Positions 3,689-40,396 of a stretch of DNA of 41,510 nucleotides are shown piece by piece. Below the pieces are notes generated by a model, which was given only the letters and a program-made list of their open reading frames with translations, ran no database searches and had not been told where the DNA came from. Both the position numbers and the translations under genes were made by a program. The DNA lies in the sequence record NC_047742.1. One strand, 5' to 3'. The number at the start of each line of letters is the position of its first letter. Position 1 is the stretch's first letter. Origin of the DNA: Enterobacteria phage IME_EC2.

Positions 3689-3718
3689 GAGCCGCTTTTT
3701 AAGCGGCCCTTTTTTTTA
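3689..3718. terminator. intrinsic terminator (GAGCCGC-TTTTTAA-GCGGCCC + T8)
   Basis: Stem-loop flanked by T-run on plus side and U-rich on minus side. Confidence 0.65.
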
Positions 3719-4740: not shown

Positions 4741-4758
4741 TTTAGCAAAAAGTGCTAT
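4741..4758 (-). promoter_or_regulatory. Promoter-like dyad copy 2 (ATAGCACTTTTTGCTAAA on minus strand), -10-like TATTAT 22-23 bp downstream
   Basis: Read directly; lies between a terminator and the next minus-strand gene. Confidence 0.5.
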
Positions 4759-7049: not shown

Positions 7050-7068
7050 TTTTAGCAAAAAGTGCTAT
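7050..7068 (-). promoter_or_regulatory. Promoter-like dyad copy 3 (ATAGCACTTTTTGCTAAAA on minus strand), TATCGT 22 bp downstream
   Basis: Read directly; about 58 bp upstream of the Dam start codon. Confidence 0.5.
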
Positions 7069-12351: not shown

Positions 12352-12903
12352 ATGGCATCACGCGGCGTTAACAAGGTGATTCTGGTCGGCAATCTGGGCC
12401 AGGATCCCGAAGTGCGTTATATGCCGTCGGGTGGAGCGGTGGCGAACATTACGATCGCCACCTCTGAATCCTGGCGCGACAAGCAGACGGGCGAACAGAA
12501 AGAACAGACGGAATGGCATCGCGTCGTATTGTTCGGCAAGCTGGCGGAGGTCGCCGGGGAGTATCTGCGCAAGGGTTCACAGGTTTACATTGAGGGCCAG
12601 CTTAGGACGCGCAAATGGACGGACCAAAGCGGCGCGGAGAAGTACACGACGGAGGTCGTCGTGAACGTCGGCGGCACTATGCAAATGCTCGGCGGGAAGA
12701 AAGAGGGAGGCCAGTCTGGGGGGAATGGACCTACCCACTCCGGCGGCGGTGGCAATTCTCGCAATTCTCCGGGCCGTGGCGCGTCTAATTCGCAAAATCC
12801 GGGCAAGGGTAGCGGGTCGGGTCCTGCGTCGTCTGGAGGCGCTTCTGGGGCCTCTAATGGCGGGGAGCCTCCGATGGACTTTGACGACGATATACCGTTT
12901 TAA
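12352..12903 (+). CDS. ssb: single-stranded DNA-binding protein
   Basis: OB-fold SSB N-terminus ([36 protein letters not shown]), Gly-rich linker, acidic tail DDDIPF. Confidence 0.9.
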
Positions 12904-12910
12904 CGGGTGA

Positions 12911-12946
12911 GGCCCTTCGGGGCCGATCCTCCCAGGAGCCGACGAG
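12911..12946 (+). promoter_or_regulatory. UUCG-tetraloop hairpin (GGCCC-TTCG-GGGCC) fused to GATCCTCCCAGGAG SD context, copy 2
   Basis: Near-identical to element at 404-438; directly precedes the HNH start codon. Confidence 0.5.
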
Positions 12947-13387: not shown

Positions 13388-13444
13388 TTTAGATAACGGT
13401 TTAATGAATAATCACGGAGACGTTAACCAATGAAGGAGCCGATC

Positions 13445-13663
13445 ATGGCAACATTAAAGCCCGTTTGCCTCGTGAAGCAGGTCCGAGAGGCGAAAGGCAT
13501 CCAGCAAAAAGATCTGGCGGAACGCGTAGGCATGATCGCCCACCAGTTGAGCCGATACGAGAACGGGCACGAGTTGCCACATATTACTAACCTCTGCCGA
13601 CTCGCTGCCGCCCTGGACGTGTCGATCGCAGACCTGATCGAGTATGGAGTGAATCATGATTAA
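13445..13663 (+). CDS. XRE-family HTH transcriptional regulator (Cro/CI-like)
   Basis: KGIQQKDLAERVGMIAHQLSRYENG HTH signature; second ATG chosen because AAGGAG lies 6 nt upstream (ORF track start 13430 is an alternative). Confidence 0.75.
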   Translation: MATLKPVCLVKQVREAKGIQQKDLAERVGMIAHQLSRYENGHELPHITNLCRLAAALDVSIADLIEYGVNHD

Positions 13664-19296: not shown

Positions 19297-20621
19297 TTAT
19301 AGCCCCTCCGGTAGAAAACCGTATTTTTCCTGAAATTGAGCCTTAACGCTAGGGGTAGGGTTCTGCATCAGGTAATTAATCGCGGCTTGCGCGTTCTGCT
19401 GCGGAATCCCCCCAGCGCTGAGGCGTCCGACGGCTTCCTGTTTCGCGTCGTCCTGCTTGATCTCGCGACGGTAGGACTCCACGCGCCCGCCCTGCGACTT
19501 CTCGATCGCGTCCTTGCCCTTGCTGAGTGCGTTCACGTAGCGCGTCATAACGTCCTTAAGCTGCTGCTCGCTCATGGTGCGCGGGTCTGCGTTGATCAGC
19601 GCCTGAGCGGCTGCGCGGCCCTCCTGCTCGGTCACTGGACCAGTACCACGCAAAGACTGAATACCCGCGACGCGGGCCTGGTCTTTAAGCTGGTTAAACT
19701 GGTTCATGATCTCCGCCGTGGCATCGCCGCCACCAGTAACCCACGACGCGCCCCTGTTAATCGCGCCCAGGTTGCCCGTCACGTAGGCCAGATCCTTACG
19801 CTGGAGGAGTCGCTGGGCCTGATCGATCGCCGTGGTGATCGGGGCGAGTTGCGTCTCGTAGGTCTGGAGAAAATCGCGCTTCGTGTTGAGGCTGTCGGCT
19901 TGCATTTTTGCTGCTGCTGCACGTACTTCTGTCGCTCAATATCGTTCTTTTCCTGCGCGATCCTCGTGTTGAGTCGCTCGGTCTGGAGTCCGATATATTT
20001 CAGATTTCGGTCTGCCGCGTTGCTCGCTGCGGTGACGTCCTGCCCCCTGATTACGGTCTGGTTCTTCATGTACTCTTTCGCGTAGTCCAGTTGGTCCTTG
20101 CTGGTATTGCTCGCCAGGTGGAGCGCCTGGACTGAGCGCTTGAACGCTTCCGGGTCCTGCGCTGCCGCCTGGTAGGCCACCTGCGGATCGATTCCCAGCG
20201 CCTGGAGCGCCGGGGCGTTCTGCTGGACGAATTGCTGGGCCATCTTCGGCCCCTGCGAGATCGCGACGTCGGCCTGGCTTGCAAGCTGGGATCCCTGCTG
20301 GCGTCGAATATCATCCACCAGTCCGAGGCGCTTCTGGAGCGCTTCGATCTGGGTAGGGTATTTGTAGGCCAGTTCGGAGATCTTGGACGGGTCGCCCGCT
20401 GCTGCTTGCCAGTCCTGATTGAACTGGGCCATTTGCGCCTGATTAGCTTGCGCCGCCTGAGTGGCGAGGCCCTGCTGGCGGTTCGCGATCTGCTGCGCCG
20501 TGTTGTTCTGAATCTGCCCGATATTGGCGAGGGTGTTAGTCCCCGCCGCCTGGATGTTCTGGAGGTTGTTCCACAGATCGCCCGGATCTGCGCCACCGCC
20601 ACCGCCTAGTAATTGCGCCAT
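19297..20621 (-). CDS. ejection protein (gp20 position), reading frame interrupted near 19905-19912
   Basis: Two ORFs (19779..20621 and 19297..19905) overlap in different frames; both Gln/Ala-rich; the upstream ORF becomes junk-like after an A5 run where the downstream frame opens. Confidence 0.45.
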
Positions 20622-25057: not shown

Positions 25058-26317
25058 TTACTGCTGGTTAGGCAGTACCAGGCCCACGTATTCCGGCACG
25101 AGGACGGAGCAACCGTAAAGCGTGGTGTAACGGCAGGTGGTCACGCCCGCGATGTGATCGAACGCGTAGGACATGATCAGAGTCGCGCCCTGTTTGGTGG
25201 TGGCTCGCATTACTTGCGGACCTTGACCAGTAGGGAACGCCAGATTACCGAACATCAGTTCCACGGAGCCGTCGGCCCACAGGATGTTAGCATTAGATGC
25301 CGTGTTGTTGATAACGGTCAGTTCCGCGCCGTTGGCGGCGTTCGCGTCCACGTTCGCGTAAGGGCGAGACGGCAGATCGGCGTTGTCCGGCGGCAGGATC
25401 TGAGGGGTGATCGTGATGTTGTTACCAGACACTCCCAGGACGCGGAACACTTGAGGGGTGTCCGTGGTGTCCTTGCTGATCATATGGACCATGTTCACGC
25501 CCGCGATGGTGAAGGCATCACCAGCGACCAGGCCGTGGGCTGCGGACACGGTGATCACGCCCTGGCGGTTATCGACCGGGAGATCGTTCGCGTCTTTCGC
25601 TTCGACTTTGTGAGCCGGAGCCGCTGCCAGGGTGATCGCTGCTGCGGAGCCAGCGCCCAGACGTGCGGAAATATCCGTCTCAAAGGACATGAAGCGAGCC
25701 ACGTCCGGGATCTGCGCCTTTTCGTATGCGGTCAGGGTTGCGCCCTGAGCATATGCGCGGGATCCGAGTTCTTTCGCCAGGAACTTGTTAGAGAACGAGT
25801 TCCAGAAGGCTTTTTTATTCGTACCCTGCGGGATGCCGATCGCGGTCATTTGTGCGCCGATCTGCGCTGCTGCGTCCCACAGGTCGCCGCCTAGCGTTCC
25901 GGTGCTGTTGTCGCCAGTGGTGGCGACGTGGGTCGCGTAACGCGCTGCGGTAGCGATCAGATCGGAGTCGATCTTCGCGGCTACGCGCTGGCCCGCTGCT
26001 CGGCCCATCTCTTTACGCTGCTCTGGGTCGCGCATTTCGCGAGCGTCCAGCTTAAAGAGAACGTTCTGAGGTTCTTTGAACACGGAAGGGACGAGGCGCT
26101 GGACGATATCGGTCCCGGCTTGTCCGGTCAGATCCAGACCTTCGATGATATCAGCGTGGTAACGCTGCGGACGGTGGATCACGTCCCCGGCGCGTTGCAT
26201 CGTCTGATCACCGGGGCGGAACTTCGCCGCGTTCTTCGACACGACGCAAGACGCCTCGAAGCTCTCCACATATTCCTCGAAAGCAATTTCGAGATCCTTC
26301 GCTAACTGGTTAGCCAT
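25058..26317 (-). CDS. major capsid (coat) protein, P22 gp5-like
   Basis: Aligns by eye with P22 coat (MQRAGDVIHRP versus MQRSSNTIWMP; YANVDANA...ILWADGSVEL versus YANVNTSL...NVFWADDAIRI); followed by strong terminator. Confidence 0.9.
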   Translation of the reverse strand: MANQLAKDLEIAFEEYVESFEASCVVSKNAAKFRPGDQTMQRAGDVIHRPQRYHADIIEGLDLTGQAGTDIVQRLVPSVFKEPQNVLFKLDAREMRDPEQRKEMGRAAGQRVAAKIDSDLIATAARYATHVATTGDNSTGTLGGDLWDAAAQIGAQMTAIGIPQGTNKKAFWNSFSNKFLAKELGSRAYAQGATLTAYEKAQIPDVARFMSFETDISARLGAGSAAAITLAAAPAHKVEAKDANDLPVDNRQGVITVSAAHGLVAGDAFTIAGVNMVHMISKDTTDTPQVFRVLGVSGNNITITPQILPPDNADLPSRPYANVDANAANGAELTVINNTASNANILWADGSVELMFGNLAFPTGQGPQVMRATTKQGATLIMSYAFDHIAGVTTCRYTTLYGCSVLVPEYVGLVLPNQQ

Positions 26318-26351: not shown

Positions 26352-27347
26352 TTACTTCTTTTCCCGCTTCTCTTTCGCCGCGAAGTATGCCGTATAATCC
26401 CCGGTTTCTTCGGCCTTCTTGCGAAGGGCTTCGAGTTGGCCCACGTTAGCGACTCCATTCTGGCCCTTAACGTCCGGCGTTTTGTTAAGCTGCTGCTTCG
26501 CCTTCGGTGCGGATCCCGCTCGGCTTTCAATATCGCGGATAAGATAGCCCAGCGCAATGTGATCGTTATTGTAAGCGTCCTCGACCTGTTTACGCAAATC
26601 AGCATTGCGTCCCAGTGCCATCACGAGCGCCGTCGGGTTCTGGCTGGTGATCATCAGGCCCGCCTGGAGTGGCTCCGGCAGTTCTGCGATCGCCGCTTCG
26701 GCCTTCTCAAATCCTGCGTACTTCTTGATCGCCTTTGCGCGTTCCGTCTGGTAGCGCGTCTGGCCTTCCTGGAATTTCTTCCCGAACGCTTCGCGCTTCG
26801 CTTCCTGCGCCGCCTGGTGCTGCTGGAAAGCTGCCTTATCCTCGGTCCACTTGTCCAGCGCTTCGGCGTACTTCTCCGGGTCCCAGTCGATCCCCTCGTC
26901 GCCCATTTCCGGCTTACGCGGCATGTCGGCGGGGATTTCCTGCGGATCCTTCTTCTGGGTGGATCCCTTAATCTGTTTTTTCTGCTCGCGAAGTTGAGCG
27001 CGGAGACGTTTCACCAGTTCGGTGTCGCCTTCCTGGTCGTCCTCGTCGGTCGGTTCAACGGTCACGGCTTTACCATCGAACAGGAACTCCTCCTCCTGAT
27101 CGTCGTCCTCGCCGTTCTCGCCTTCCTTCGTCTTAGGCTCGCCGTTTTCGTCCAGGTCCTGCTCGTCCGGGTCGGTGTCCGCGTTGCCGGGATCCTTCTC
27201 GTCCGGGTCGGTGTCTGGATTGTCGTCGGCGTTGTCGCCCTGCTGCCCTTGTTGAGCCTCATACGCCGCTGCGCCGCCGTCGCCGCCTCCCTGAGATCCG
27301 TCGTCGTGCTCTGCGTAATATTTCAAAAACATATTTCGGAATTTCAT
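26352..27347 (-). CDS. scaffolding protein (gp8 position)
   Basis: Immediately upstream of coat; highly acidic low-complexity N-terminal half and helical charged C-terminal half. Confidence 0.6.
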   Translation of the reverse strand: MKFRNMFLKYYAEHDDGSQGGGDGGAAAYEAQQGQQGDNADDNPDTDPDEKDPGNADTDPDEQDLDENGEPKTKEGENGEDDDQEEEFLFDGKAVTVEPTDEDDQEGDTELVKRLRAQLREQKKQIKGSTQKKDPQEIPADMPRKPEMGDEGIDWDPEKYAEALDKWTEDKAAFQQHQAAQEAKREAFGKKFQEGQTRYQTERAKAIKKYAGFEKAEAAIAELPEPLQAGLMITSQNPTALVMALGRNADLRKQVEDAYNNDHIALGYLIRDIESRAGSAPKAKQQLNKTPDVKGQNGVANVGQLEALRKKAEETGDYTAYFAAKEKREKK

Positions 27348-27473
27348 TGTAGATCCTCGTTTGTTGCATACGCGATGTTTTCGCCCATCGGTGGCGGGTG
27401 TAAGTTTAAGCGAGGACGGCGGGAAAATGCAAACAGGGGAGATCGCGATTAACGATCCCCCCAGTGTGGCGGG

Positions 27474-27740
27474 TTATTTCGTGGCGGCTCTTACGACCTG
27501 CTGGGAGAGGTAGAGCGCCTCGTGATGCGGTGGAACCGAAGCGGGGATCACGTAGTACAGCGCGACGTCTCCCCCGTCCTTCTCGAAGCCGTGGATCCTC
27601 TCACTGGCTACGATTCGCCAGCGGTTCCCCTCTGGCCCGGTCAGGAAGCCGTCCAGGTCGTGGAGTTCCGTCTCCACCTGGGCCAGCTTCGCGAGGGATG
27701 CGACTCCCCCGCTCGGAAAGGCTAAATAGTGATGTTTCAT
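27474..27740 (-). CDS. hypothetical protein (88 aa)
   Basis: ORF track; ATGA overlap with upstream gene. Confidence 0.5.
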   Translation of the reverse strand: MKHHYLAFPSGGVASLAKLAQVETELHDLDGFLTGPEGNRWRIVASERIHGFEKDGGDVALYYVIPASVPPHHEALYLSQQVVRAATK

Positions 27741-28173
27741 ACGATCTCGGCGTCCTCCACGTCGTCGTCTTTGCGCGGGTTGACTTCTTTCGCGCTGTCG
27801 GCTGCTGCCACGTAGTCGCCCTCGATCGGGCCTTTGTAGGTCAGTTGTTTGATGCTCGCGATATCGGCGAGGAGTTTCTGTTCCTGCATGTAGAAGTTAG
27901 CGCGGAGTGACTGGAGGCCAGTCTCCAGCAGTGGGAGAGCCAGTTCCGCGATGCGCTCGGCGGTCGGCTCGGTGTAGACGATCTCGATCTCACGAGTTTC
28001 TAACAGGACCATAGCCGGGTCCGTGTTGTCCTTGATGTGCTTCTCCACGCTGTACAGGTCGCCCAGGTCGTGGTCGGAGACGTAAGTCTCCCCGCGCTTG
28101 TAGAAGCTGGAGCGTGTACCGTCCGCGACGCACAGGCAAATGAATTGTTTTTGATGTAAGTTTTAGTAGTCAT
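27737..28173 (-). CDS. hypothetical protein, apparent frame change near 28140 (A5 run)
   Basis: ATG at 28173 with SD opens a frame (MTTKTYIKN) that turns junk-like; the -1 frame is protein-like and continues into ORF 27737..28048, which has no good start of its own. Confidence 0.4.
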
Positions 28174-28248
28174 TTTGTAGTCTCTCTGGTCAGTGGCGGG
28201 GACCATTCCCCGCCGACACAATCAATATAACATTTGATAATCTGGGCG

Positions 28249-28267
28249 TTTTAGCAATTCGTGCTAT
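28249..28267 (-). promoter_or_regulatory. Promoter-like dyad copy 4 (ATAGCACGAATTGCTAAAA on minus strand), TATATT 22 bp downstream
   Basis: Read directly; followed by conserved leader hairpin GGCGGGG-AATGGT-CCCCGCC and SD. Confidence 0.5.
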
Positions 28268-28680
28268 TTGGCGCGAGCGCCGATCATGGCTTGCCAGGTA
28301 AACACGACCGTATCGGAAAGAAGCTCGTCCACGCCTTCCTCCGCCATCTGCTCGTAAAGTCCATCGAGAGCGCCGGGGATCTGTTCCCAAAGGGCTTTAC
28401 GTCCGGCCTCGATCTGCTCCGCCGTCGGCTGGAGTTCCACCTCGATCGGAGCGGGTTCGACCTCTCCCGCCTTCACCTGCGGCTCCGCGTTGGTCATGAG
28501 TTCCGAAGCGCGAGCGCCGACCAGCGCCAGCGCCAGGCCATACGCCGCCAGATCCTCCTCGGTCGGCTGCTGGATGAAGCGAGCCGCCAGACGCGCCTCG
28601 TGTGCCTTCACTTTGTCGAGGATCCCCATCTCGTCGGCCTGAGCCAGAAGAACGGCGCGGATTACTTTTTCCTGGTTCAT
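28264..28680 (-). CDS. hypothetical protein (138 aa, acidic)
   Basis: ORF track. Confidence 0.5.
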   Translation of the reverse strand: MNQEKVIRAVLLAQADEMGILDKVKAHEARLAARFIQQPTEEDLAAYGLALALVGARASELMTNAEPQVKAGEVEPAPIEVELQPTAEQIEAGRKALWEQIPGALDGLYEQMAEEGVDELLSDTVVFTWQAMIGARAK

Positions 28681-28898
28681 GCGTAAGCCCCTTCGAATTG
28701 TGCGATCGACATTGGCGAGTAATACAGATTTAACTCGTACCCACAGATCCGCCCGTCTGGGCCGTTGATCGGCTCGCGGACTTTGACCTCCACGCGGCGC
28801 TCGTTGTCCGGGAACTCCGTCACGCTCACGATGTTACGGACCGGGAGGAGATACTTTTCCCCGGCGGCGTCTTTGACTGCTATCAGTGATCGGGCCAT
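28677..28898 (-). CDS. hypothetical protein (73 aa)
   Basis: ORF track; ATGA overlap with next gene. Confidence 0.5.
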   Translation of the reverse strand: MARSLIAVKDAAGEKYLLPVRNIVSVTEFPDNERRVEVKVREPINGPDGRICGYELNLYYSPMSIAQFEGAYA

Positions 28899-28993
28899 TC
28901 AAAACTCCTTTGTAATGGTTTAGTGATGTGTCGAGGCAAAGAATAGCCCGGACTTGCCGGGCTTGTCTTTAGCTTTTCGTGCGGTCCGACCAG

Positions 28994-31231
28994 TTACAGG
29001 CCAGCGAGTCCTAACTGGCGATCGGCGGACTGCTGCGCCTGGCGTTCTGCCATCTCGCGAGCGTTCCGATCCTCCTGCTGGTTGTGGCCTTGCCCCTGAG
29101 CCTTGAGGAACAGATCCGCCTGTTTGTGGGCGTCGCTGTTCTGCTGGCTCACGTACTTCTGGAGGACGGCGATCGCGTTCATTAGCTGATCCTGCGGGAT
29201 AGCCGCCGCCTCTGCCATCGTCTTGACCGTCTGCGCCTGTTTCAGATTGCCGTCGGACGCGGTGCTCTGCGCCTTGAGTTGCAATTCTAAGCGCTTGTTC
29301 TCCTGCTCCATCACTGCGGCCTGTCCCTGCTGCGCTACGCCCTGAGCGGCTACCATCTCCGGGTTTTCCTGCTGCTGGGCCGCTTGCTGGGCCTGTTGAA
29401 CAAGGGCTTTTTCTTCGTCCGTCTGCGGCTTAATGATGCCATTCAGGAGAAGCTGGCGGCGGCTGTACTCTTTGAAGTCCTGCAAGCCTTCGCCGTCCAT
29501 GTTCATGATGATCAGGCCCATGACTACGGCGGCGTTCGGGTCGCCTGGTGCCATCGACTGGAGGAGCGTCGTCAGGCTGCGGACGGTTGCGGTCCGTTTG
29601 GTGCTGCTGGACTCACCCACATCGGCCTCGACCTCATATTTCCCGCGTTTCAGGTCGTTAATCGCGATCGCCTCGTCCGTGTCGCGGTCGATCACTTTCC
29701 CGGTCATTAACACGAGATCGTCGGTCCCGTCCTCGTTCTTGATTCGGACGTAGTTCTCCGAGCCGTAGACCTTGCGGGCCGCGCTGAGGTAAACACGCCC
29801 GCAATGGCGGAGGGTTTTCCCCAGGTTGTCCATGTAGAGAGCGCCCTGTCCGTCCATACGGGCGAAAATGGCCTCCACGGTTTCGGTCGCAAGGTTCGAC
29901 GGAAGGGCCTCGACCTGGGAGGATCCGACGATCTGCTGGATAGTGCTCCCGGTGTACTGAAGGACCGCCGCCAGCGCTGGAGAGAGCGGAGTCGATGGCG
30001 TGTAACCCAGTGGCCCGGCTTGCTGCACGACCTCACCAGCGGCATTACGGAGCGATTTCGCGGGCAAGTATGCCGGGCGTTTCGTGTTACGTTCCCCCCA
30101 GGCGTCCGCCAGCTTGCCGGGAATCATGTCGATATCCATGATCGGGATGTTATCGCCGCCAGACTGCGCGGCCTGGTCCGCCATCATGGACACGATCAGG
30201 TTTTCCAGACGTTGCGCGTCGAGGGCCTGGGTCGCGTGACCGCTTACGCGCTCCATGTTGTCGATAAACGAGCGGCGGGCGTTGAACACGAAGATCGGGA
30301 TCCATTCGAACGGGATCAGCTTCGGCTCCTCGATCCATTCACCGCCGGACATAAGGCCGCAATAGACCTTACGGCGTTTCACTTTGCGGTCCTTCTGGCG
30401 CTCCCAGCCTCCGGCCTTAAGCTCGTCCTCGATCTGCTCGATCTCGTCCTCGTCGTACACCTCCACGTCCCCGGTGAGTGGGTTCTTATAGGAGATCACG
30501 GTGGTGTCCTCGATCTTCACCTCGTAGTAACGCGCCAGGTAGATCGCGTCCTTCGTGGCCCAGTCGAATTGTTTCCCGGTGTCCATCGCCAGCAGGTCCT
30601 CCGGGGCGAGCGCGTCGGGATATTTCTCCTCGTACTTGTCCGGGGTCATGCTGAATAGCTCCGCCATCCACATGGCATCCGAACGATCGTACATTTTGGA
30701 GTCCTGATCGATAAACAGGCACGAGGCCGGATCATAGATCGGATAAAAGACAATATGCCGGGCCTCGTTGTCCGGGTCGAACTCGTCCTCCAGTTCGGTG
30801 TCCATGCGGAAAGCGCCCATTCCGCCCGTCACGCCGTCGTCGTAGGTATTGTCCACGGACTCCGGCCCGTTCGACTCCTGGAAGTCGGCGCGGAACTTGC
30901 CGTTTAACTTGTCCGCCAGTTCTTCGGAGGCCTGGGTGTCCTTCGGGCGGAAAGTAACATTGATGCGGTTCAGTCGGTAGTCGGTGATAATGCGATCCAC
31001 CTCGCGCCCGACCTTGTTAAGCTCGAATCGAGGGTATTTCTGGAATCGTTCATCATCCATCGCAAAGCCGGAGTTCGTCGATCCTTCCCATTGTGCGCCC
31101 GGAATGCGGACGAAACGGGCCGTTTCGATCATCTTCTTACGACTGGACTCCTCGCTCCCGATCGCGGCGCTTAACTTATTACGTGCGCATTCCTGCCAGT
31201 TCTGCGCCTTCTTCGTTGCTCGTGCCATCAT
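28994..31231 (-). CDS. portal protein, P22 gp1-like
   Basis: Aligns by eye with P22 portal (YYEV, VKRRKVY versus IKRRRVY, PEMVAAQGVAQQGQAAV versus PAMVQAQGVLLQGQAEL); Gln-rich C-terminal barrel region. Confidence 0.9.
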   Translation of the reverse strand: MMARATKKAQNWQECARNKLSAAIGSEESSRKKMIETARFVRIPGAQWEGSTNSGFAMDDERFQKYPRFELNKVGREVDRIITDYRLNRINVTFRPKDTQASEELADKLNGKFRADFQESNGPESVDNTYDDGVTGGMGAFRMDTELEDEFDPDNEARHIVFYPIYDPASCLFIDQDSKMYDRSDAMWMAELFSMTPDKYEEKYPDALAPEDLLAMDTGKQFDWATKDAIYLARYYEVKIEDTTVISYKNPLTGDVEVYDEDEIEQIEDELKAGGWERQKDRKVKRRKVYCGLMSGGEWIEEPKLIPFEWIPIFVFNARRSFIDNMERVSGHATQALDAQRLENLIVSMMADQAAQSGGDNIPIMDIDMIPGKLADAWGERNTKRPAYLPAKSLRNAAGEVVQQAGPLGYTPSTPLSPALAAVLQYTGSTIQQIVGSSQVEALPSNLATETVEAIFARMDGQGALYMDNLGKTLRHCGRVYLSAARKVYGSENYVRIKNEDGTDDLVLMTGKVIDRDTDEAIAINDLKRGKYEVEADVGESSSTKRTATVRSLTTLLQSMAPGDPNAAVVMGLIIMNMDGEGLQDFKEYSRRQLLLNGIIKPQTDEEKALVQQAQQAAQQQENPEMVAAQGVAQQGQAAVMEQENKRLELQLKAQSTASDGNLKQAQTVKTMAEAAAIPQDQLMNAIAVLQKYVSQQNSDAHKQADLFLKAQGQGHNQQEDRNAREMAERQAQQSADRQLGLAGL

Positions 31232-31246
31232 AATCTCCGGTATGGG

Positions 31247-32869
31247 TTAGCGGTTGCTCGGCACATTATAGCCGGAATAATCTTCATCTTTCGAGCGCTC
31301 CGGCGGTTGCATCAGCATACACAATACATCAGCCATGCCCGGAGACTTCATTTTCAGCTTAGTGCGCATCTGCGGCTTAGGCATACGCGCAAATTTCCCG
31401 TTGGTGTTGTAAATACGCGGAATGCGGCACACTTCGGCGCGGAGTTTGGCCATATGCTCCCCGATCCCCTCGCTGTCCAGGCTGATCAGGTCGTCCGGGT
31501 TGTGATAGACGCCCTTCACCACGGCCTCGTAAGTCCTTTCGAAGCGCTTCCGTAACAGGTAGATATCCTGGGAGCCACGGTTCGCGAAAGCGTCGATATT
31601 CTTCTGAATGTTGTCGCCCTTCGCCTTGTTGTTGAGCCAGTGATCCAGCTCCACAGGGTTGTCCGGGAACTTCACGCCGTCCCCGGCGTTGTAGCCATCT
31701 ACGAGGACGTTCGTCCCGGCGTATGAGTCCGTAACCTGGCGGCGGAGGCCAGCGCCCAGTCCGGCGCGGTCCCACACGAACGCCTCGATCCCGTGGTCCT
31801 TCGCCGTGTTGATCGCCTTGTCTACGGAGTCGTTCGCGTCCCCTTCGAACCATTCCTCCATATGGGTGACGACGGAGCCGAAGCGCTCGCCATATGCCTT
31901 GTTATCCGCCCCGACGTCCGCCGGGTCGAGTGCGCCGATCCTCATGCCGGACGGCTTGAATCCGAGTTTCTTGTGGGCGTCGATCGCCGCGTCGAACCAT
32001 TCCGCCGGGATAATCGCATCCGGTACGGAGTCGTTAAACATCCCGCCCCATACGTGATCAAACAGCGCTTTCGAGAGGGTTACGCGGTCGAACTCCATCT
32101 CCGATCGAAGCTCTGGGGGGAACCACGGATTATCTTCCCAGTTCACGCGGATAATCAGGTGGAGATCGTCCTCGTAAATGCCGTCCCGCTGGAGATCCTC
32201 CCAGAATGGAATGAGAAAACGCTGAGAAAACGCATCCTCCGAGGAGCCGGGGTTCGCGGTGAATAGCATCATGCCGCCCGTTTCGCGCATGGTCGGCGTA
32301 AGCTGGCGGAGAGACTCGGCGGAAAAGGTCTGCGCCTCCTCGCCCCAGAAGCGACGGAAGCCGAACGCGGACTTAACGCCCGCCGGGTCCCTGGCCATCC
32401 CCTTAAATCGGATGATCGCGCCGTTGGAGTGGCGGATCTCCTTCTCCAGTACCTCGAAGCCGTCCAGCCCGTAAGCCTCGATCCGGTTGACGAGGAGCGG
32501 GTGGACTGAATCCTTGATCGATGCCTGATACTCACGGAGACACATCGCGCTCGCTGCCTCGTCGTGGGCGTCCGCGTCGATGATCCCGCCGACGGTGAGC
32601 GACTTCCCGGAGCCACGGCCCCCGACCAGGATAATAAAGCGCTTAGGACGGAGGAGGATCGGGGTCAGACACTCCGCGATCGTAATGTCGTGCGGCTCGG
32701 AGGTGTAGATCCACTCTCCGTTAACCTTCTTCATGTTGTAGCAGTGCTTGGCGCTGGTCCCGTCCGGCTCATAGACGCCATAGACCAGCCCGCCGTCTCG
32801 TGCGACGTAAGCGGCCCGCCCCTCCAGGCGAGCCAGTCGATCGAGGTTATCCTTTCGATTTTTTGCCAT
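31247..32869 (-). CDS. terL: terminase large subunit
   Basis: Walker A VGGRGSGKS; position directly upstream of portal; N-terminal 45 aa may be an extension (start uncertain). Confidence 0.85.
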   Translation of the reverse strand: MAKNRKDNLDRLARLEGRAAYVARDGGLVYGVYEPDGTSAKHCYNMKKVNGEWIYTSEPHDITIAECLTPILLRPKRFIILVGGRGSGKSLTVGGIIDADAHDEAASAMCLREYQASIKDSVHPLLVNRIEAYGLDGFEVLEKEIRHSNGAIIRFKGMARDPAGVKSAFGFRRFWGEEAQTFSAESLRQLTPTMRETGGMMLFTANPGSSEDAFSQRFLIPFWEDLQRDGIYEDDLHLIIRVNWEDNPWFPPELRSEMEFDRVTLSKALFDHVWGGMFNDSVPDAIIPAEWFDAAIDAHKKLGFKPSGMRIGALDPADVGADNKAYGERFGSVVTHMEEWFEGDANDSVDKAINTAKDHGIEAFVWDRAGLGAGLRRQVTDSYAGTNVLVDGYNAGDGVKFPDNPVELDHWLNNKAKGDNIQKNIDAFANRGSQDIYLLRKRFERTYEAVVKGVYHNPDDLISLDSEGIGEHMAKLRAEVCRIPRIYNTNGKFARMPKPQMRTKLKMKSPGMADVLCMLMQPPERSKDEDYSGYNVPSNR

Positions 32870-33810: not shown

Positions 33811-33814
33811 AAAA

Positions 33815-36140: not shown

Positions 36141-36211
36141 GATGTTCTCCCGGTCAGTGGCGGGACCATTTCCCGCCGTCAGAAGAACTATAACAACATT
36201 TGATAAGTGCG

Positions 36212-36230
36212 TTTTAGCAATTCGTGCTAT
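36212..36230 (-). promoter_or_regulatory. Promoter-like dyad copy 5 (ATAGCACGAATTGCTAAAA on minus strand), TATAGT 22 bp downstream
   Basis: Read directly; flanking about 90 bp nearly identical to copy 1 (inverted) and copy 4. Confidence 0.5.
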
Positions 36231-36499
36231 TCGATGCCGTCATAACGCCCGGCCTTGAACAGTGTCCCGTTTCGCCAGTCGTTCCACGCGAAGTAGGGCC
36301 AGATCACCAGCGTAACAGCCAGCACGAGGACCGCCAGCAATGCCACGATGAAGGCGACGAGAGGGATCAGGGAGGGAGGGATGGCCCTCACCTCCTCCGC
36401 CATCTTGCGGCCCAGGTAGGCCGCTGCTCCCGCCCTGCATTCCATGATGATATAAGCGACGCCCAGCATCAGGAAAGAGGCGATCAGTTCGTAGATCAT
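36227..36499 (-). CDS. small membrane protein (90 aa, 2-3 TM)
   Basis: Hydrophobic segments IASFLMLGVAYIIM and LIPLVAFIVALLAVLVLAVTLVIW. Confidence 0.55.
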   Translation of the reverse strand: MIYELIASFLMLGVAYIIMECRAGAAAYLGRKMAEEVRAIPPSLIPLVAFIVALLAVLVLAVTLVIWPYFAWNDWRNGTLFKAGRYDGIE

Positions 36500-37389: not shown

Positions 37390-37518
37390 CGTAACGTCCA
37401 GGCCGCGCTTAACTGCGTATTTTTGGTGGTTGCGTTGACTGCTGTCATGGTCTTGCCCTCTGAGTTGGTGGGCGTCTCGTCGCCCGGTGAAAACATATTA
37501 TCAATTATCACCGGGGAC

Positions 37519-37537
37519 GTTTTAGCAATTCGTGCTA
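37519..37537 (-). promoter_or_regulatory. Promoter-like dyad copy 6 (ATAGCACGAATTGCTAAAA on minus strand), TAATAT 22 bp downstream
   Basis: Read directly; overlaps the stop of the upstream small ORF. Confidence 0.5.
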
Positions 37538-37717
37538 TTTATCCTTTCTCATTCGACGGAGTGATCGGACCAGATCGACGACGGCCCAGCCAGACGCCAG
37601 CAGGAACGGCGCGAGGACCGCCAGCTTTTCCCAGTTGGTCAGGATCGCGTCGGTCCCTCTGGTCATGCCGATCCAGGCTATCACCAGGACCTCGTAAGCG
37701 AAGGCGAGCCAGATCAT
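37535..37717 (-). CDS. small membrane protein (60 aa)
   Basis: Two hydrophobic segments; ORF track. Confidence 0.45.
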   Translation of the reverse strand: MIWLAFAYEVLVIAWIGMTRGTDAILTNWEKLAVLAPFLLASGWAVVDLVRSLRRMRKDK

Positions 37718-38848: not shown

Positions 38849-40396
38849 TCATTTTTTGGTCGCATGTTCGAAGGCGTGGAAAAAGTCCGTCCGCTTAATC
38901 GGCGGCTCTGCGAAGTTGCGGAAGTGATCGGATAACATGCCTTTGGTCAGCTTCGGCAAGCGGTAGCCCTTGTCCTTGCGCTGCTGCGAGTATTCCACGA
39001 CGTAGGCCAGCAGTCGGATCGCCTGTTCCTCCTTCTTGCTGCGCTTGCGCGTGTCCTCCGGCTTCTCGCCCTCGTCCTTCTCGGCTGGCACTGCCTCCAG
39101 CGCGTTAATGACGACCAGCGTCCCCAGGTTGTCGCCGATCTCCCACGCCGCCGGGTTGGCCTTCGCCTCCGGGCGTACAGGCTGCATCCTCGCCAGCGCC
39201 TCGCGCTTCATCTTCACCAGGTCAGGCGGTAACTTCGCGGACTTCGTGCGCATGGCTCGCGCCGGGAGAAGCGCACAGCCTTTGGCCTTCGTGTGCTCAA
39301 TCACAAAAAGCTCTTTGTCCTTGCACTTCTTCACCATGATCTCGAATCCGGCGTTTGCCCTGAGCGTTGACGCGCCACGAGCGCCGCGCTCGGTGTCCTT
39401 CCCGGTGTGGTGGATGATCATCACGGCACAGTTAAGCCATTCAGCCAGTAACGCCGCGTTACGCATCAGGATCGCCGCCACGTTGTTGTCGTTCTCGTTG
39501 AAGTCGGTCCCGCCCTCCCAGCGGTCCGGCTCGTCGCCCTTGCCTGGGATCATGCGCTCGCCCACTTTCTGGCCCGCGCTGTTGGCGCTGTAGGTATCGA
39601 TCACGATCAGGGAAAGCGGGTTCAGGCCGAAGAATGGGGACGCCTTGATGGTTGCCGCGAACGTCTGGAGTTCGCTCTCGCGGTGTAGTGGGACCTGCTG
39701 GGACAATACCCAAAAGTTGGGTAACGGCTCGTTCTTGTTCTGCGTGTACTTCCATCCCGCGTAACGTTCACGGACGCCGCTCGCATCCTCCGGCGCGAAG
39801 TACATCACGGATCCCTGTCGGACTGGCAAGCCGCCGAAGTCGATCCCGGTGGCGACACAAATCGCCATTTGTAACGCTGCGAACGTTTTCTTTGCGCCGG
39901 ACTCGCCGACCAGGAAGCCCACGGAGCGCTCCGGGATCAGCGACTGGATCACATAGTTAACGGGCTTGATCTCGTTCGACTTGTTCAGGCTGGCGATCAG
40001 CGGGTCGTCCATTGCCTCGACCGCCAGCGCCTCGTCGATCTTCTTGCGCTGCTTCTCGCGCTGCTTCGCGAGGAGTTCCTGGCGACGTGCTTCGTCCTTC
40101 TCCTCGTCGGTGAGGTCTGACGTCTTGACGATCGTCGGCTTGTCGTTGCGGACGGTTGCCGTCCACTCTGCGGCCTCGTGCTCGTCGAAGTCGAAGAACG
40201 CCCCGGCATCCTGGGCGGATTCTGCTTCTCTCGCCGCGTACAGGCTGGCCTGTTCCTCGTAGAACTCCATAGGAGCCTCTGGCACGTCGTCAGCAGGTGG
40301 AGGCGTTACCGGGCCGGAGAACTCGCCCCGGACCATCTCGATCAGCTCCTCCTCGCTGCGCTCTGGTGTCGGCATTACTTCATCATAATCAGTCAT
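38849..40396 (-). CDS. RepA-like RecA-fold AAA ATPase (putative replicative helicase)
   Basis: Walker A GESGAKKT, Walker B-like LIVIDTYS, IIHHTGKD; acidic disordered N-terminal region. Confidence 0.7.
   Translation of the reverse strand: MTDYDEVMPTPERSEEELIEMVRGEFSGPVTPPPADDVPEAPMEFYEEQASLYAAREAESAQDAGAFFDFDEHEAAEWTATVRNDKPTIVKTSDLTDEEKDEARRQELLAKQREKQRKKIDEALAVEAMDDPLIASLNKSNEIKPVNYVIQSLIPERSVGFLVGESGAKKTFAALQMAICVATGIDFGGLPVRQGSVMYFAPEDASGVRERYAGWKYTQNKNEPLPNFWVLSQQVPLHRESELQTFAATIKASPFFGLNPLSLIVIDTYSANSAGQKVGERMIPGKGDEPDRWEGGTDFNENDNNVAAILMRNAALLAEWLNCAVMIIHHTGKDTERGARGASTLRANAGFEIMVKKCKDKELFVIEHTKAKGCALLPARAMRTKSAKLPPDLVKMKREALARMQPVRPEAKANPAAWEIGDNLGTLVVINALEAVPAEKDEGEKPEDTRKRSKKEEQAIRLLAYVVEYSQQRKDKGYRLPKLTKGMLSDHFRNFAEPPIKRTDFFHAFEHATKK

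Follow-up and report, generated by a model that had tools for sequence, protein, structure and literature searches.

The genome of Enterobacteria phage IME_EC2 (record NC_047742.1) carries four small genes between its portal and scaffold genes. The window analysed is this whole genome of 41,510 nucleotides (nt). IME_EC2 is the type species of Murrayvirus, and both it and its relatives have been isolated as lytic podoviruses. Proteins encoded in the window match IME_EC2_37, _38 and _39 exactly. The four genes are called A, B, C and D in the order in which they follow the portal gene, and the portal-scaffold interval is called the slot; all genes concerned lie on the minus strand (Table 1). The slot is best explained as a long-standing, moron-type hyperplastic site among the head genes of a single clade of P22-like podophages, holding accessory and probably non-structural genes in two expression units, and we put the probability of this reading at roughly 0.6.

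The slot is filled throughout one clade

The gene order portal, scaffold, coat of a P22-like head module is present in IME_EC2 (PF16510, phrog_648 and PF11651). A preliminary description of this DNA, made from the sequence alone, had stated that in P22-type modules the scaffold gene directly follows the portal gene, and in P22 the two genes are indeed only 13 nt apart. By comparison, the slot is occupied in 10 of 10 sequenced relatives, where it measures 1141-1938 nt and holds differing sets of open reading frames (ORFs). The gap is 1644 nt in the Escherichia phage sortsyn, the closest record in the phage collection with 97% identity across the region, 1242 nt in Lumpael, 1520 nt in Sortsne, 1257 nt in Kc237, 1938 nt in IME279, 1153 nt in C130_2 (Hungariovirus), 1141 nt in Skarpretter, 1828 nt in Kc166B and 1725 nt in a metagenomic Murrayvirus. 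The filled slot spans Murrayvirus, Sortsnevirus, Hungariovirus, Skarprettervirus and Kc166B.

The distance from the portal stop to the coat start was also measured in 80 IMG/VR loci with related portals. It amounted to 2137-2500 nt in six loci belonging to the clade (portal at least 61% identical), as against 2677 nt in IME_EC2, and to 986-1008 nt, corresponding to the scaffold gene alone, in 73 of 73 loci of the next group (portal 53-55% identical). Since the slot is filled in all members of the clade and the next portal group has a scaffold-only interval, the filled slot is, judged by its distribution, a shared derived feature of one multi-genus clade and not an insertion private to IME_EC2. 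The synteny comparison proposed in the preliminary description thus found genes that are extra relative to P22-type modules, in a slot that is filled clade-wide and empty in the next portal group.

Two traits of morons are seen here: the genes lie between genes that are adjacent in related phages (P22 and all 73 next-group loci), and length and gene content vary among the ten relatives. In a survey of 16 P22-like phages and prophages, morons of the morphogenetic cluster were found only ahead of the tailspike gene (PMC2629481). The portal-scaffold site is therefore a real departure from the canonical P22-like layout, and with it this clade shows a second variable site in P22-type head clusters, one that is stably occupied.

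Genes A and B form a variable front part

Slot proteins were compared by all-against-all BLASTP and by phage-wide tblastn. Gene A has homologues in seven phage records only (100-47% identity, tblastn, phage collection) and occurs only in Murrayvirus, Kc237 and KMB41; unrelated ORFs stand in its place in Sortsne, IME279 and Kc166B. Gene B was found in Murrayvirus and Sortsnevirus, and its C-terminal domain (about residues 62-136) is joined in Lumpael gp54 to a different N-terminal domain, which matches another PHROG than that of B. The gene content of this first unit turns over between relatives, and some close relatives lack A, B or C or have another gene instead, which supports the view that the slot genes are accessory.

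Signals for a promoter and a terminator of their own are present for C and D but not for A and B. A weak hairpin and a decayed promoter lie between the portal gene and A and B, which have no promoter of their own and would most simply be read through from the portal transcript.

Genes C and D have the layout of a moron

C and D, in contrast, have the full layout of a moron, with a predicted promoter, the genes and a predicted terminator. The promoter is marked by the dyad TAGCA-N5-TGCTA, which occurs six times in the genome against 0.41 expected, while 0 of 100 shuffles reached six copies. The slot copy, which the preliminary description had counted as copy 4, is the fourth of the six. The other five precede sets of small genes and other rows listed in Table 1, and none of these five stands ahead of the core head and tail genes.

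Dyad sites were oriented in IME_EC2, Lumpael, C130_2 and Skarpretter (n=11). All 11 read TAGCAC-N3-TTGCTAAA and are followed by a -10-like hexamer exactly 22-23 nt after TTGCTA. TATAGT is the commonest hexamer, the others being TATATT, TAATAT, TATTAT, TATTCT and TATCGT, and apart from this the spacers are unrelated. Many of the sites also have the TGn of an extended -10 element, and the centre of the dyad lies near -43. Such a geometry is consistent with a promoter of the host polymerase under a dimeric DNA-binding protein, which could be an activator or a repressor. Two other interpretations were rejected, namely TTGCTA as a -35 element, as it lies 22-23 nt from the -10 element, and the dyad as a boxB-type RNA hairpin, as its loop varies (CGAAT versus CTTTT) while the half-sites are fixed.

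Because the dyad is common to five other sites in the genome, one dimeric phage regulator would control C and D together with them, and the dyad promoters would define a testable six-promoter regulon in a little-studied group of lytic coliphages. An ORF of the XRE helix-turn-helix type at 13430-13663 is one candidate for this regulator.

The dyad promoter stands directly before C in eight of ten C-bearing loci and is absent from the slot in three of three loci that have no C. In both C130_2 and Skarpretter this dyad extends into the end of the portal gene, with C immediately behind it. The portal flank of IME_EC2, with its decayed dyad, is homologous to this intact promoter, and it appears that in IME_EC2 a paralogous cassette serves C after A and B. 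The equivalent region of sortsyn had no match to the dyad at up to two substitutions. The slot cassette belongs to a 70-nt repeat family with further copies at 36162-36231 (79%) and 37470-37539 (61%), and this repeated promoter and hairpin cassette is probably a recombination handle that moves such units.

C and D, the conserved core of the slot, would thus be transcribed by the host RNA polymerase from a promoter, predicted in its activity and timing, with an extended -10 element, no -35 element and a 15-bp dyad operator near -43. Their RNA would begin with a stabilising 5' hairpin and end at a strong terminator ahead of the scaffold leader. The hairpin of this terminator has an 11-bp stem with 7 GC pairs, followed by UGUUUGCAUUUU (folding free energy, dG, -22.1 kcal/mol; z -3.7), and seven phages from four genera have kept a hairpin here. 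It is the terminator-like hairpin that the preliminary description had put at about 27407-27452; the hairpin is real, but its actual position is shifted by about 10-20 nt.

Beyond the terminator, the leader of the scaffold gene contains CTTAMACTTAC, CGCCACCGATGGGCG and ACATCGCGTATGCAAC, conserved across four genera at a level above that of many coding regions, and a small CGCC...GGCG hairpin with two-sided changes at two pairs. Its 13-nt core motif is unique in the genome, and the 11-nt motif has only one-mismatch matches elsewhere. The leader may be a gene-specific control element for scaffold expression. Rfam gave nothing above noise in 27200-29100. With a conserved terminator and a conserved leader following the slot, the arrangement bears on how expression of scaffold and coat is set.

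Gene D has nine close homologues, and a chain of BLAST matches ties it to a family that we call Y. The D profile matched the Y profile in hhalign with a probability of 96% (E 4e-9, 81 columns), and by these comparisons D is a short member of the fast-diverging Y family. When IME_EC2 is compared with Kc166B or C130_2, Y can hardly be detected or not at all, and D of IME_EC2 has no BLAST match in Skarpretter, although the portals of the same pair are 64% identical. Y immediately precedes the scaffold gene in all genomes examined but IME279; among relatives whose gene content could be read, it has this place in 13 of 14.

Gene C: a conserved family with an SSB-like tip

C is the most widely recognisable of the slot genes. 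It is present in sortsyn, KMB41, IME279, sortkaff, Kc166B, C130_2, Stutzerimonas phage STP9 and Skarpretter, and absent from Lumpael, sortregn, ST231, Sortsne and Kc237. The family is tiny, with 17 clusters at 90% identity and five representatives at 50% identity; a deep profile search among 1.84 billion proteins returned only these five representatives, and a search of IMG/VR three loci. Between IME_EC2 and Kc166B or C130_2 the identity is 57-60% for C, 59-61% for the portal and 60-66% for the coat, suggesting that C evolves slowly and has been inherited vertically along with the head module.

Members of about 145-160 amino acids (aa) share an invariant CxC and an invariant motif TYKGPxEGD-AAAD. 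The protein is strongly acidic (pI 4.65) and is predicted to consist of a beta domain carrying the CxC, a 41-residue helix and an acidic, disordered tail; the AlphaFold2 model shows a beta sheet and a long helix, with a confidence score (pLDDT) of about 90 over residues 1-110. The body would represent a novel beta-plus-helix architecture.

The tail has a constant tip behind an acidic linker that varies in length and sequence. Twelve of 16 aligned members end in IPF or VPF (e.g. ...KPLDIPF, ...PDLDIPF and ...DFDPDIPF), and three remote members in DVPF, DFPF and DSPF. IME_EC2's own protein for binding single-stranded DNA (SSB; 12352-12903, plus strand; PF00436) ends in DFDDDIPF, which we take to be the tip of E. 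coli SSB. Such a tip on the phage SSB suggests that the phage relies on host partner proteins of SSB. When the C profile was aligned with the phage SSB by hhalign, only the five terminal residues matched. An SSB domain or OB fold was not found in C: there was no Pfam match for C and four relatives, and the AlphaFold2 fold differs.

A fixed tip on a drifting linker is the pattern expected of a docking peptide, from which we infer that the partners of C are proteins binding the SSB tail. C, a small acidic protein of oligomer type, would dock onto host enzymes that recognise this tail, either recruiting or sequestering them, and in most relatives would act through its own tail. Tentatively, and at less than even odds, the C family may carry a functional C-terminal tip of SSB on a non-OB body and serve as a decoy or recruiter in the host SSB network; it would be expressed from a separately regulated cassette within the head operon, with a natural tip-less allele in IME_EC2 and sortsyn. 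A literature search gave no description of a non-OB, SSB-tip-bearing protein of the C type.

Gene C in the IME_EC2 record

The acidic tail ending in D-I-P-F is found in most relatives, but not in C of IME_EC2. Compared with a tip-bearing metagenomic relative, a clean 45-nt deletion in IME_EC2 and sortsyn takes out LPPNDNDKPLDIPF and joins the end of C with the start of D. The same 3' module is also seen in a phage of metagenome SRR31913103, where C (locus 783-1217) is a mosaic with a C130_2-like 5' half and a 3' part (about the last 47 codons) whose protein is identical to the tip-less IME_EC2 allele; this indicates recombination inside gene C in the SRR31913103 phage.

The preliminary description had listed small ORFs of 73, 138, about 140 and 88 aa. 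These correspond to the four genes A-D, but C is not one open frame in the record. Its ATG at 28173 opens nine codons before the frame breaks in a run of five adenines (A5), and the remainder (27737-28150) lies in another frame. GenBank annotates C of IME_EC2 only as a GTG-started remnant of 103 aa. Every relative has six adenines (A6) and an intact ORF of 144-161 aa, so that A5 is unique to the IME_EC2 record; A6 is found in sortsyn and in two metagenomic relatives, one of which is 97% identical at the protein level.

C could, on the one hand, be a genuine pseudogene in IME_EC2, with the slot as decaying and largely neutral DNA. This would agree with A5 in the record where all relatives have A6, with the loss of the conserved C tip through the 45-nt deletion, and with the decay of the portal-proximal dyad. 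On the other hand, a similar 1-nt homopolymer shortfall splits an ejection-protein gene in the same record; repaired C has a ratio of nonsynonymous to synonymous substitution rates (dN/dS) of 0.09 against its nearest allele (0.09-0.21 against the closest alleles); and the reading frames of A, B and D are unbroken, with 83-100% identity to their sortsyn counterparts. We therefore regard a pseudogene as very unlikely. The tip-less allele of IME_EC2 and sortsyn appears to be still under purifying selection.

Compared with sortsyn, homopolymers in the record lack 1 nt at about 19910, 28149, 37425 and 38858 (blocks of 98-99% identity) and at 33811 (94% block). The first of these concerns the P22 gp20-like ejection protein, 441 aa in sortsyn, which is split into ORFs at 19779-20621 and 19297-19905 (minus strand) by a T5/T6 difference near 19905-19910. 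The gp20-type counterpart is essential in P22. Such a lesion is unlikely in a plaque-forming phage, and the split at 19297-20621 is probably a sequencing error. It is accordingly quite likely that the frameshift in C is also a sequencing artefact and that IME_EC2 makes a tip-less C of 145 aa. Programmed -1 frameshifting at A5 was rejected in view of the in-frame A6 in the relatives, the poor heptamer and the other homopolymer shortfalls in the record. Very probably, two or more genes are split in the IME_EC2 record by errors in homopolymers, and its annotation should be corrected.

Further single-base differences in homopolymer length from sortsyn were seen in 94-95% blocks at about 2830 and 13988, and at 3717 and 7151, where the record is the longer one. 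The shortfalls at 37425 and 38858 lie in a block of 99% identity, the latter within the last codons of a 515-aa primase/helicase-like ORF (38849-40396).

Weighing of the evidence

Several observations weigh against the slot being a moron-type site with non-structural genes. With a G+C content of 0.52-0.66, the slot does not differ from its flanks (about 0.59) and shows no foreign signature, and the deviating base composition that is a classical moron trait was not found when slot and flanking genes were compared. C is about as conserved as portal and coat, and D/Y is nearly universal and always adjoins the scaffold leader; both would also fit a role in head assembly or in the virion. C of IME_EC2 has no D-I-P-F tip, so that docking by the tip cannot apply there as stated. 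A generic sigma-70 scan missed the promoter, which has no -35 element, and the promoter and terminator calls are based on consensus. The C genes of IME279 and Kc166B come without the dyad. For B and C no functional analogue emerged when folds were searched, and the literature searched gave no transcript, proteome or genetic data for these phages.

A recent foreign origin of the slot was dropped, as its base composition is the same as that of the flanks. The accessory island of the preliminary description accordingly stands as far as the genes are accessory and extra relative to P22 and C-D has a moron layout, but it is neither recent nor private, being clade-wide and of the same G+C content as its surroundings.

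The absence of a recognisable family, also noted in the preliminary description, held in Pfam, PHROGs, NCBIfam, PADLOC and PDB sequences. A-D and ten slot proteins of relatives matched only PHROGs of unknown function in the first four of these libraries. Gene A had no match in any of the five, and B alone among A-D matched a PHROG (phrog_35278, function unknown). Sequence and profile searches of the PDB gave only noise for B (λ Cro, E 0.3-1.7; Alba, E 0.013) and, for D, only the designed repeat protein 'Scone-E' with no single stretch passing, again noise. For C, BFVD returned the Skarpretter homologue and weak matches to phi29 p6-like or 'dsDNA-binding protein' entries (E 0.15-0.6), which may serve as a lead.

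A rival explanation would be that A-D are small virion or head-assembly proteins (internal, ejected, or accessory to portal or scaffold) made with the head operon. The position between portal and scaffold genes, the divergence of C at the pace of portal and coat, and the place of D/Y just before the scaffold gene in 13 of 14 relatives would all agree with this, as would the database label 'internal virion protein' on the Kc237 homologues of A and B. The preliminary description had named structural roles of the same genes in close relatives as an observation that would speak against its island. That label is what was found, but the Kc237 paper contains neither proteomics nor the phrase 'internal virion protein'. 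Moreover, viable close relatives lack A, B or C or have another gene instead, the same type of head is made by P22 and 73 related loci with the slot empty, and true homologues of ejection proteins are found elsewhere in the genome. No sequence or fold similarity of A-D to virion proteins was found, and A and B had no family, PDB or fold match among known internal or ejection proteins. The predicted promoter of C-D is not of the head type, and a terminator separates C-D from the scaffold gene. A structural role is thus unlikely, and non-structural accessory genes remain the preferred reading.

The preliminary description had also suggested anti-defence cargo, i.e. that one or more of A-D inhibit host immunity, for example with the acidic B or C as a DNA mimic or decoy. 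The fast turnover of unrelated small ORFs at the front of the slot, the divergence of D/Y far beyond that of the head genes, and the strongly acidic nature of B and C (pI 4.4 and 4.65) are traits that such cargo might have, and a decoy of the SSB tail could in principle blunt host nucleases or sensors. Nothing found speaks for this role. A-D had no match to described inhibitors in the libraries searched, none of which was dedicated to anti-defence proteins; PADLOC covers defence systems only and its zero matches are uninformative, and fold searches gave no DNA-mimic or inhibitor analogue. C appears to evolve slowly, at the rate of portal and coat, and to be inherited vertically with the head module, which is atypical of arms-race genes. 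We consider anti-defence cargo improbable and retain the reading of a long-standing accessory slot.

Coordinates and neighbouring features

Table 1. Features of the slot, its flanking head genes and the dyad copies in the IME_EC2 genome.
Feature	Position	Strand	Remarks
Dyad copy	60-74	plus	before small ORFs and lysis cassette
Dyad copy	4743-4757	minus	before small ORFs and Hoc-like gene
Dyad copy	7053-7067	minus	before Dam methylase and RusA row
Coat gene	25058-26317	minus	PF11651, P22-type
Scaffold gene	26352-27347	minus	phrog_648
Scaffold gene leader	27348-27425	minus	downstream slot border
Intrinsic terminator (predicted)	27426-27462	minus	hairpin 27436-27462, U-tract to ~27426; closes C-D unit
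Gene D	27474-27740	minus	88 aa; start overlaps C stop (ATGA)
Gene C	27737-28173	minus	~145 aa if repaired; split in record at A5 run 28148-28152
Promoter cassette (predicted)	28195-28268	minus	dyad, extended -10 and 5' GC hairpin; predicted start ~28216
5' GC hairpin	28195-28214	minus	at predicted transcript start; dG -20, z -2.5
Extended -10 TGTTATATT	28224-28232	minus	
Dyad operator TAGCACGAATTGCTA	28252-28266	minus	fourth copy along genome
Gene B	28264-28680	minus	138 aa; acidic, pI 4.4; all-helical, two domains
Gene A	28677-28898	minus	73 aa; strong AAGGAG ribosome-binding site
Portal 3' flank	28945-28984	minus	decayed dyad, GC hairpin, then ATTCTTTGCC
Portal-flank GC hairpin	28945-28963	minus	dG -19, z -4.0
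Decayed dyad CCGCACGAAAAGCTA	28970-28984	minus	4 mismatches to TAGCACNNNTTGCTAAA (manual count); both half-sites decayed
Portal gene	28994-31231	minus	PF16510 P22_portal, E 3.5e-156; phrog_156; upstream slot border
Large terminase gene	31247-32869	minus	directly ahead of portal gene
Dyad copies	36215-36229, 37523-37537	minus	before two left-arm sets of small genes

The junction between the terminase and portal genes (31232-31246) is a second variable slot. It measures 15 nt in IME_EC2, and holds a 546-nt ORF in sortsyn (28705-29328 of sortsyn) and two to three reverse-oriented small genes with a dyad promoter of their own in C130_2 and Skarpretter (about 1700-2165 of the compared loci). Elsewhere in the genome a 49-nt direct repeat (391-439 and 12897-12945, 76% identical) includes a GGCCCCTTCGGGG(G)CC hairpin and looks like a terminator module common to the ends of two plus-strand gene rows.

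Comparison with known systems

Close parallels are the morons of lambdoid and P22-like phages, such as the 'ant moron' of P22, located between genes 16 and 9 (moron definition as in PMC2629481). Like these, the slot is an apparent insertion in a morphogenetic operon, is variable in length and content, has a part with its own predicted promoter and terminator, and may modulate read-through into the next late gene. Unlike these, the slot lies between portal and scaffold genes and has the base composition of its flanks. The C-D/Y unit is conserved across genera and not sporadic as in morons, and the phages were isolated as lytic plaque-formers, so that expression from a prophage, as with prophage morons, is not expected.

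The Mu promoter Pm with its activator Mor, and the Mu late promoters with C of Mu, are activator-dependent and have a dyad near -43 and no -35 element, which makes them a lead for the slot promoter. Like them, the slot promoter has a good -10 element, no -35 element at 17-bp spacing and a dyad about 43 bp upstream of the predicted start. In contrast to the Mu promoters, many of the slot-type promoters have the TGn of an extended -10 and could fire without an activator, which would make the dyad a site for a repressor; there is no sequence similarity to Pm/Mor or to the late promoters and C of Mu.

In T4-like phages, PeSL promoter/stem-loop cassettes shuffle genes (PMC2839356, PMC4122927). The slot cassette resembles these in being a short repeated promoter plus stem-loop at the borders of variable genes, with three 70-nt copies, promoter geometry, hairpins and a presence that tracks C, and homologous recombination at such a cassette could plausibly shuffle gene units. 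It differs in having an unrelated sequence, in carrying a dyad operator and in occurring as only six copies per genome, and the analogy is one of function only.

The C-terminal tip of SSB (SSB-Ct, ...DDDIPF) docks ExoI, RecQ, PriA, the chi subunit and many other proteins (PMC5872125). The C family is like SSB-Ct in having an acidic, disordered tail that ends in D-[IVF]-P-F-COOH, with a conserved tip and a drifting linker, and unlike SSB in that its body has no OB fold and no SSB domain and that its partner binding is a prediction; in C of IME_EC2 and sortsyn the tip is lost. If the tip is functional, C would provide a compact natural tool to probe or block the hub of interactions around bacterial SSB, itself a drug target.

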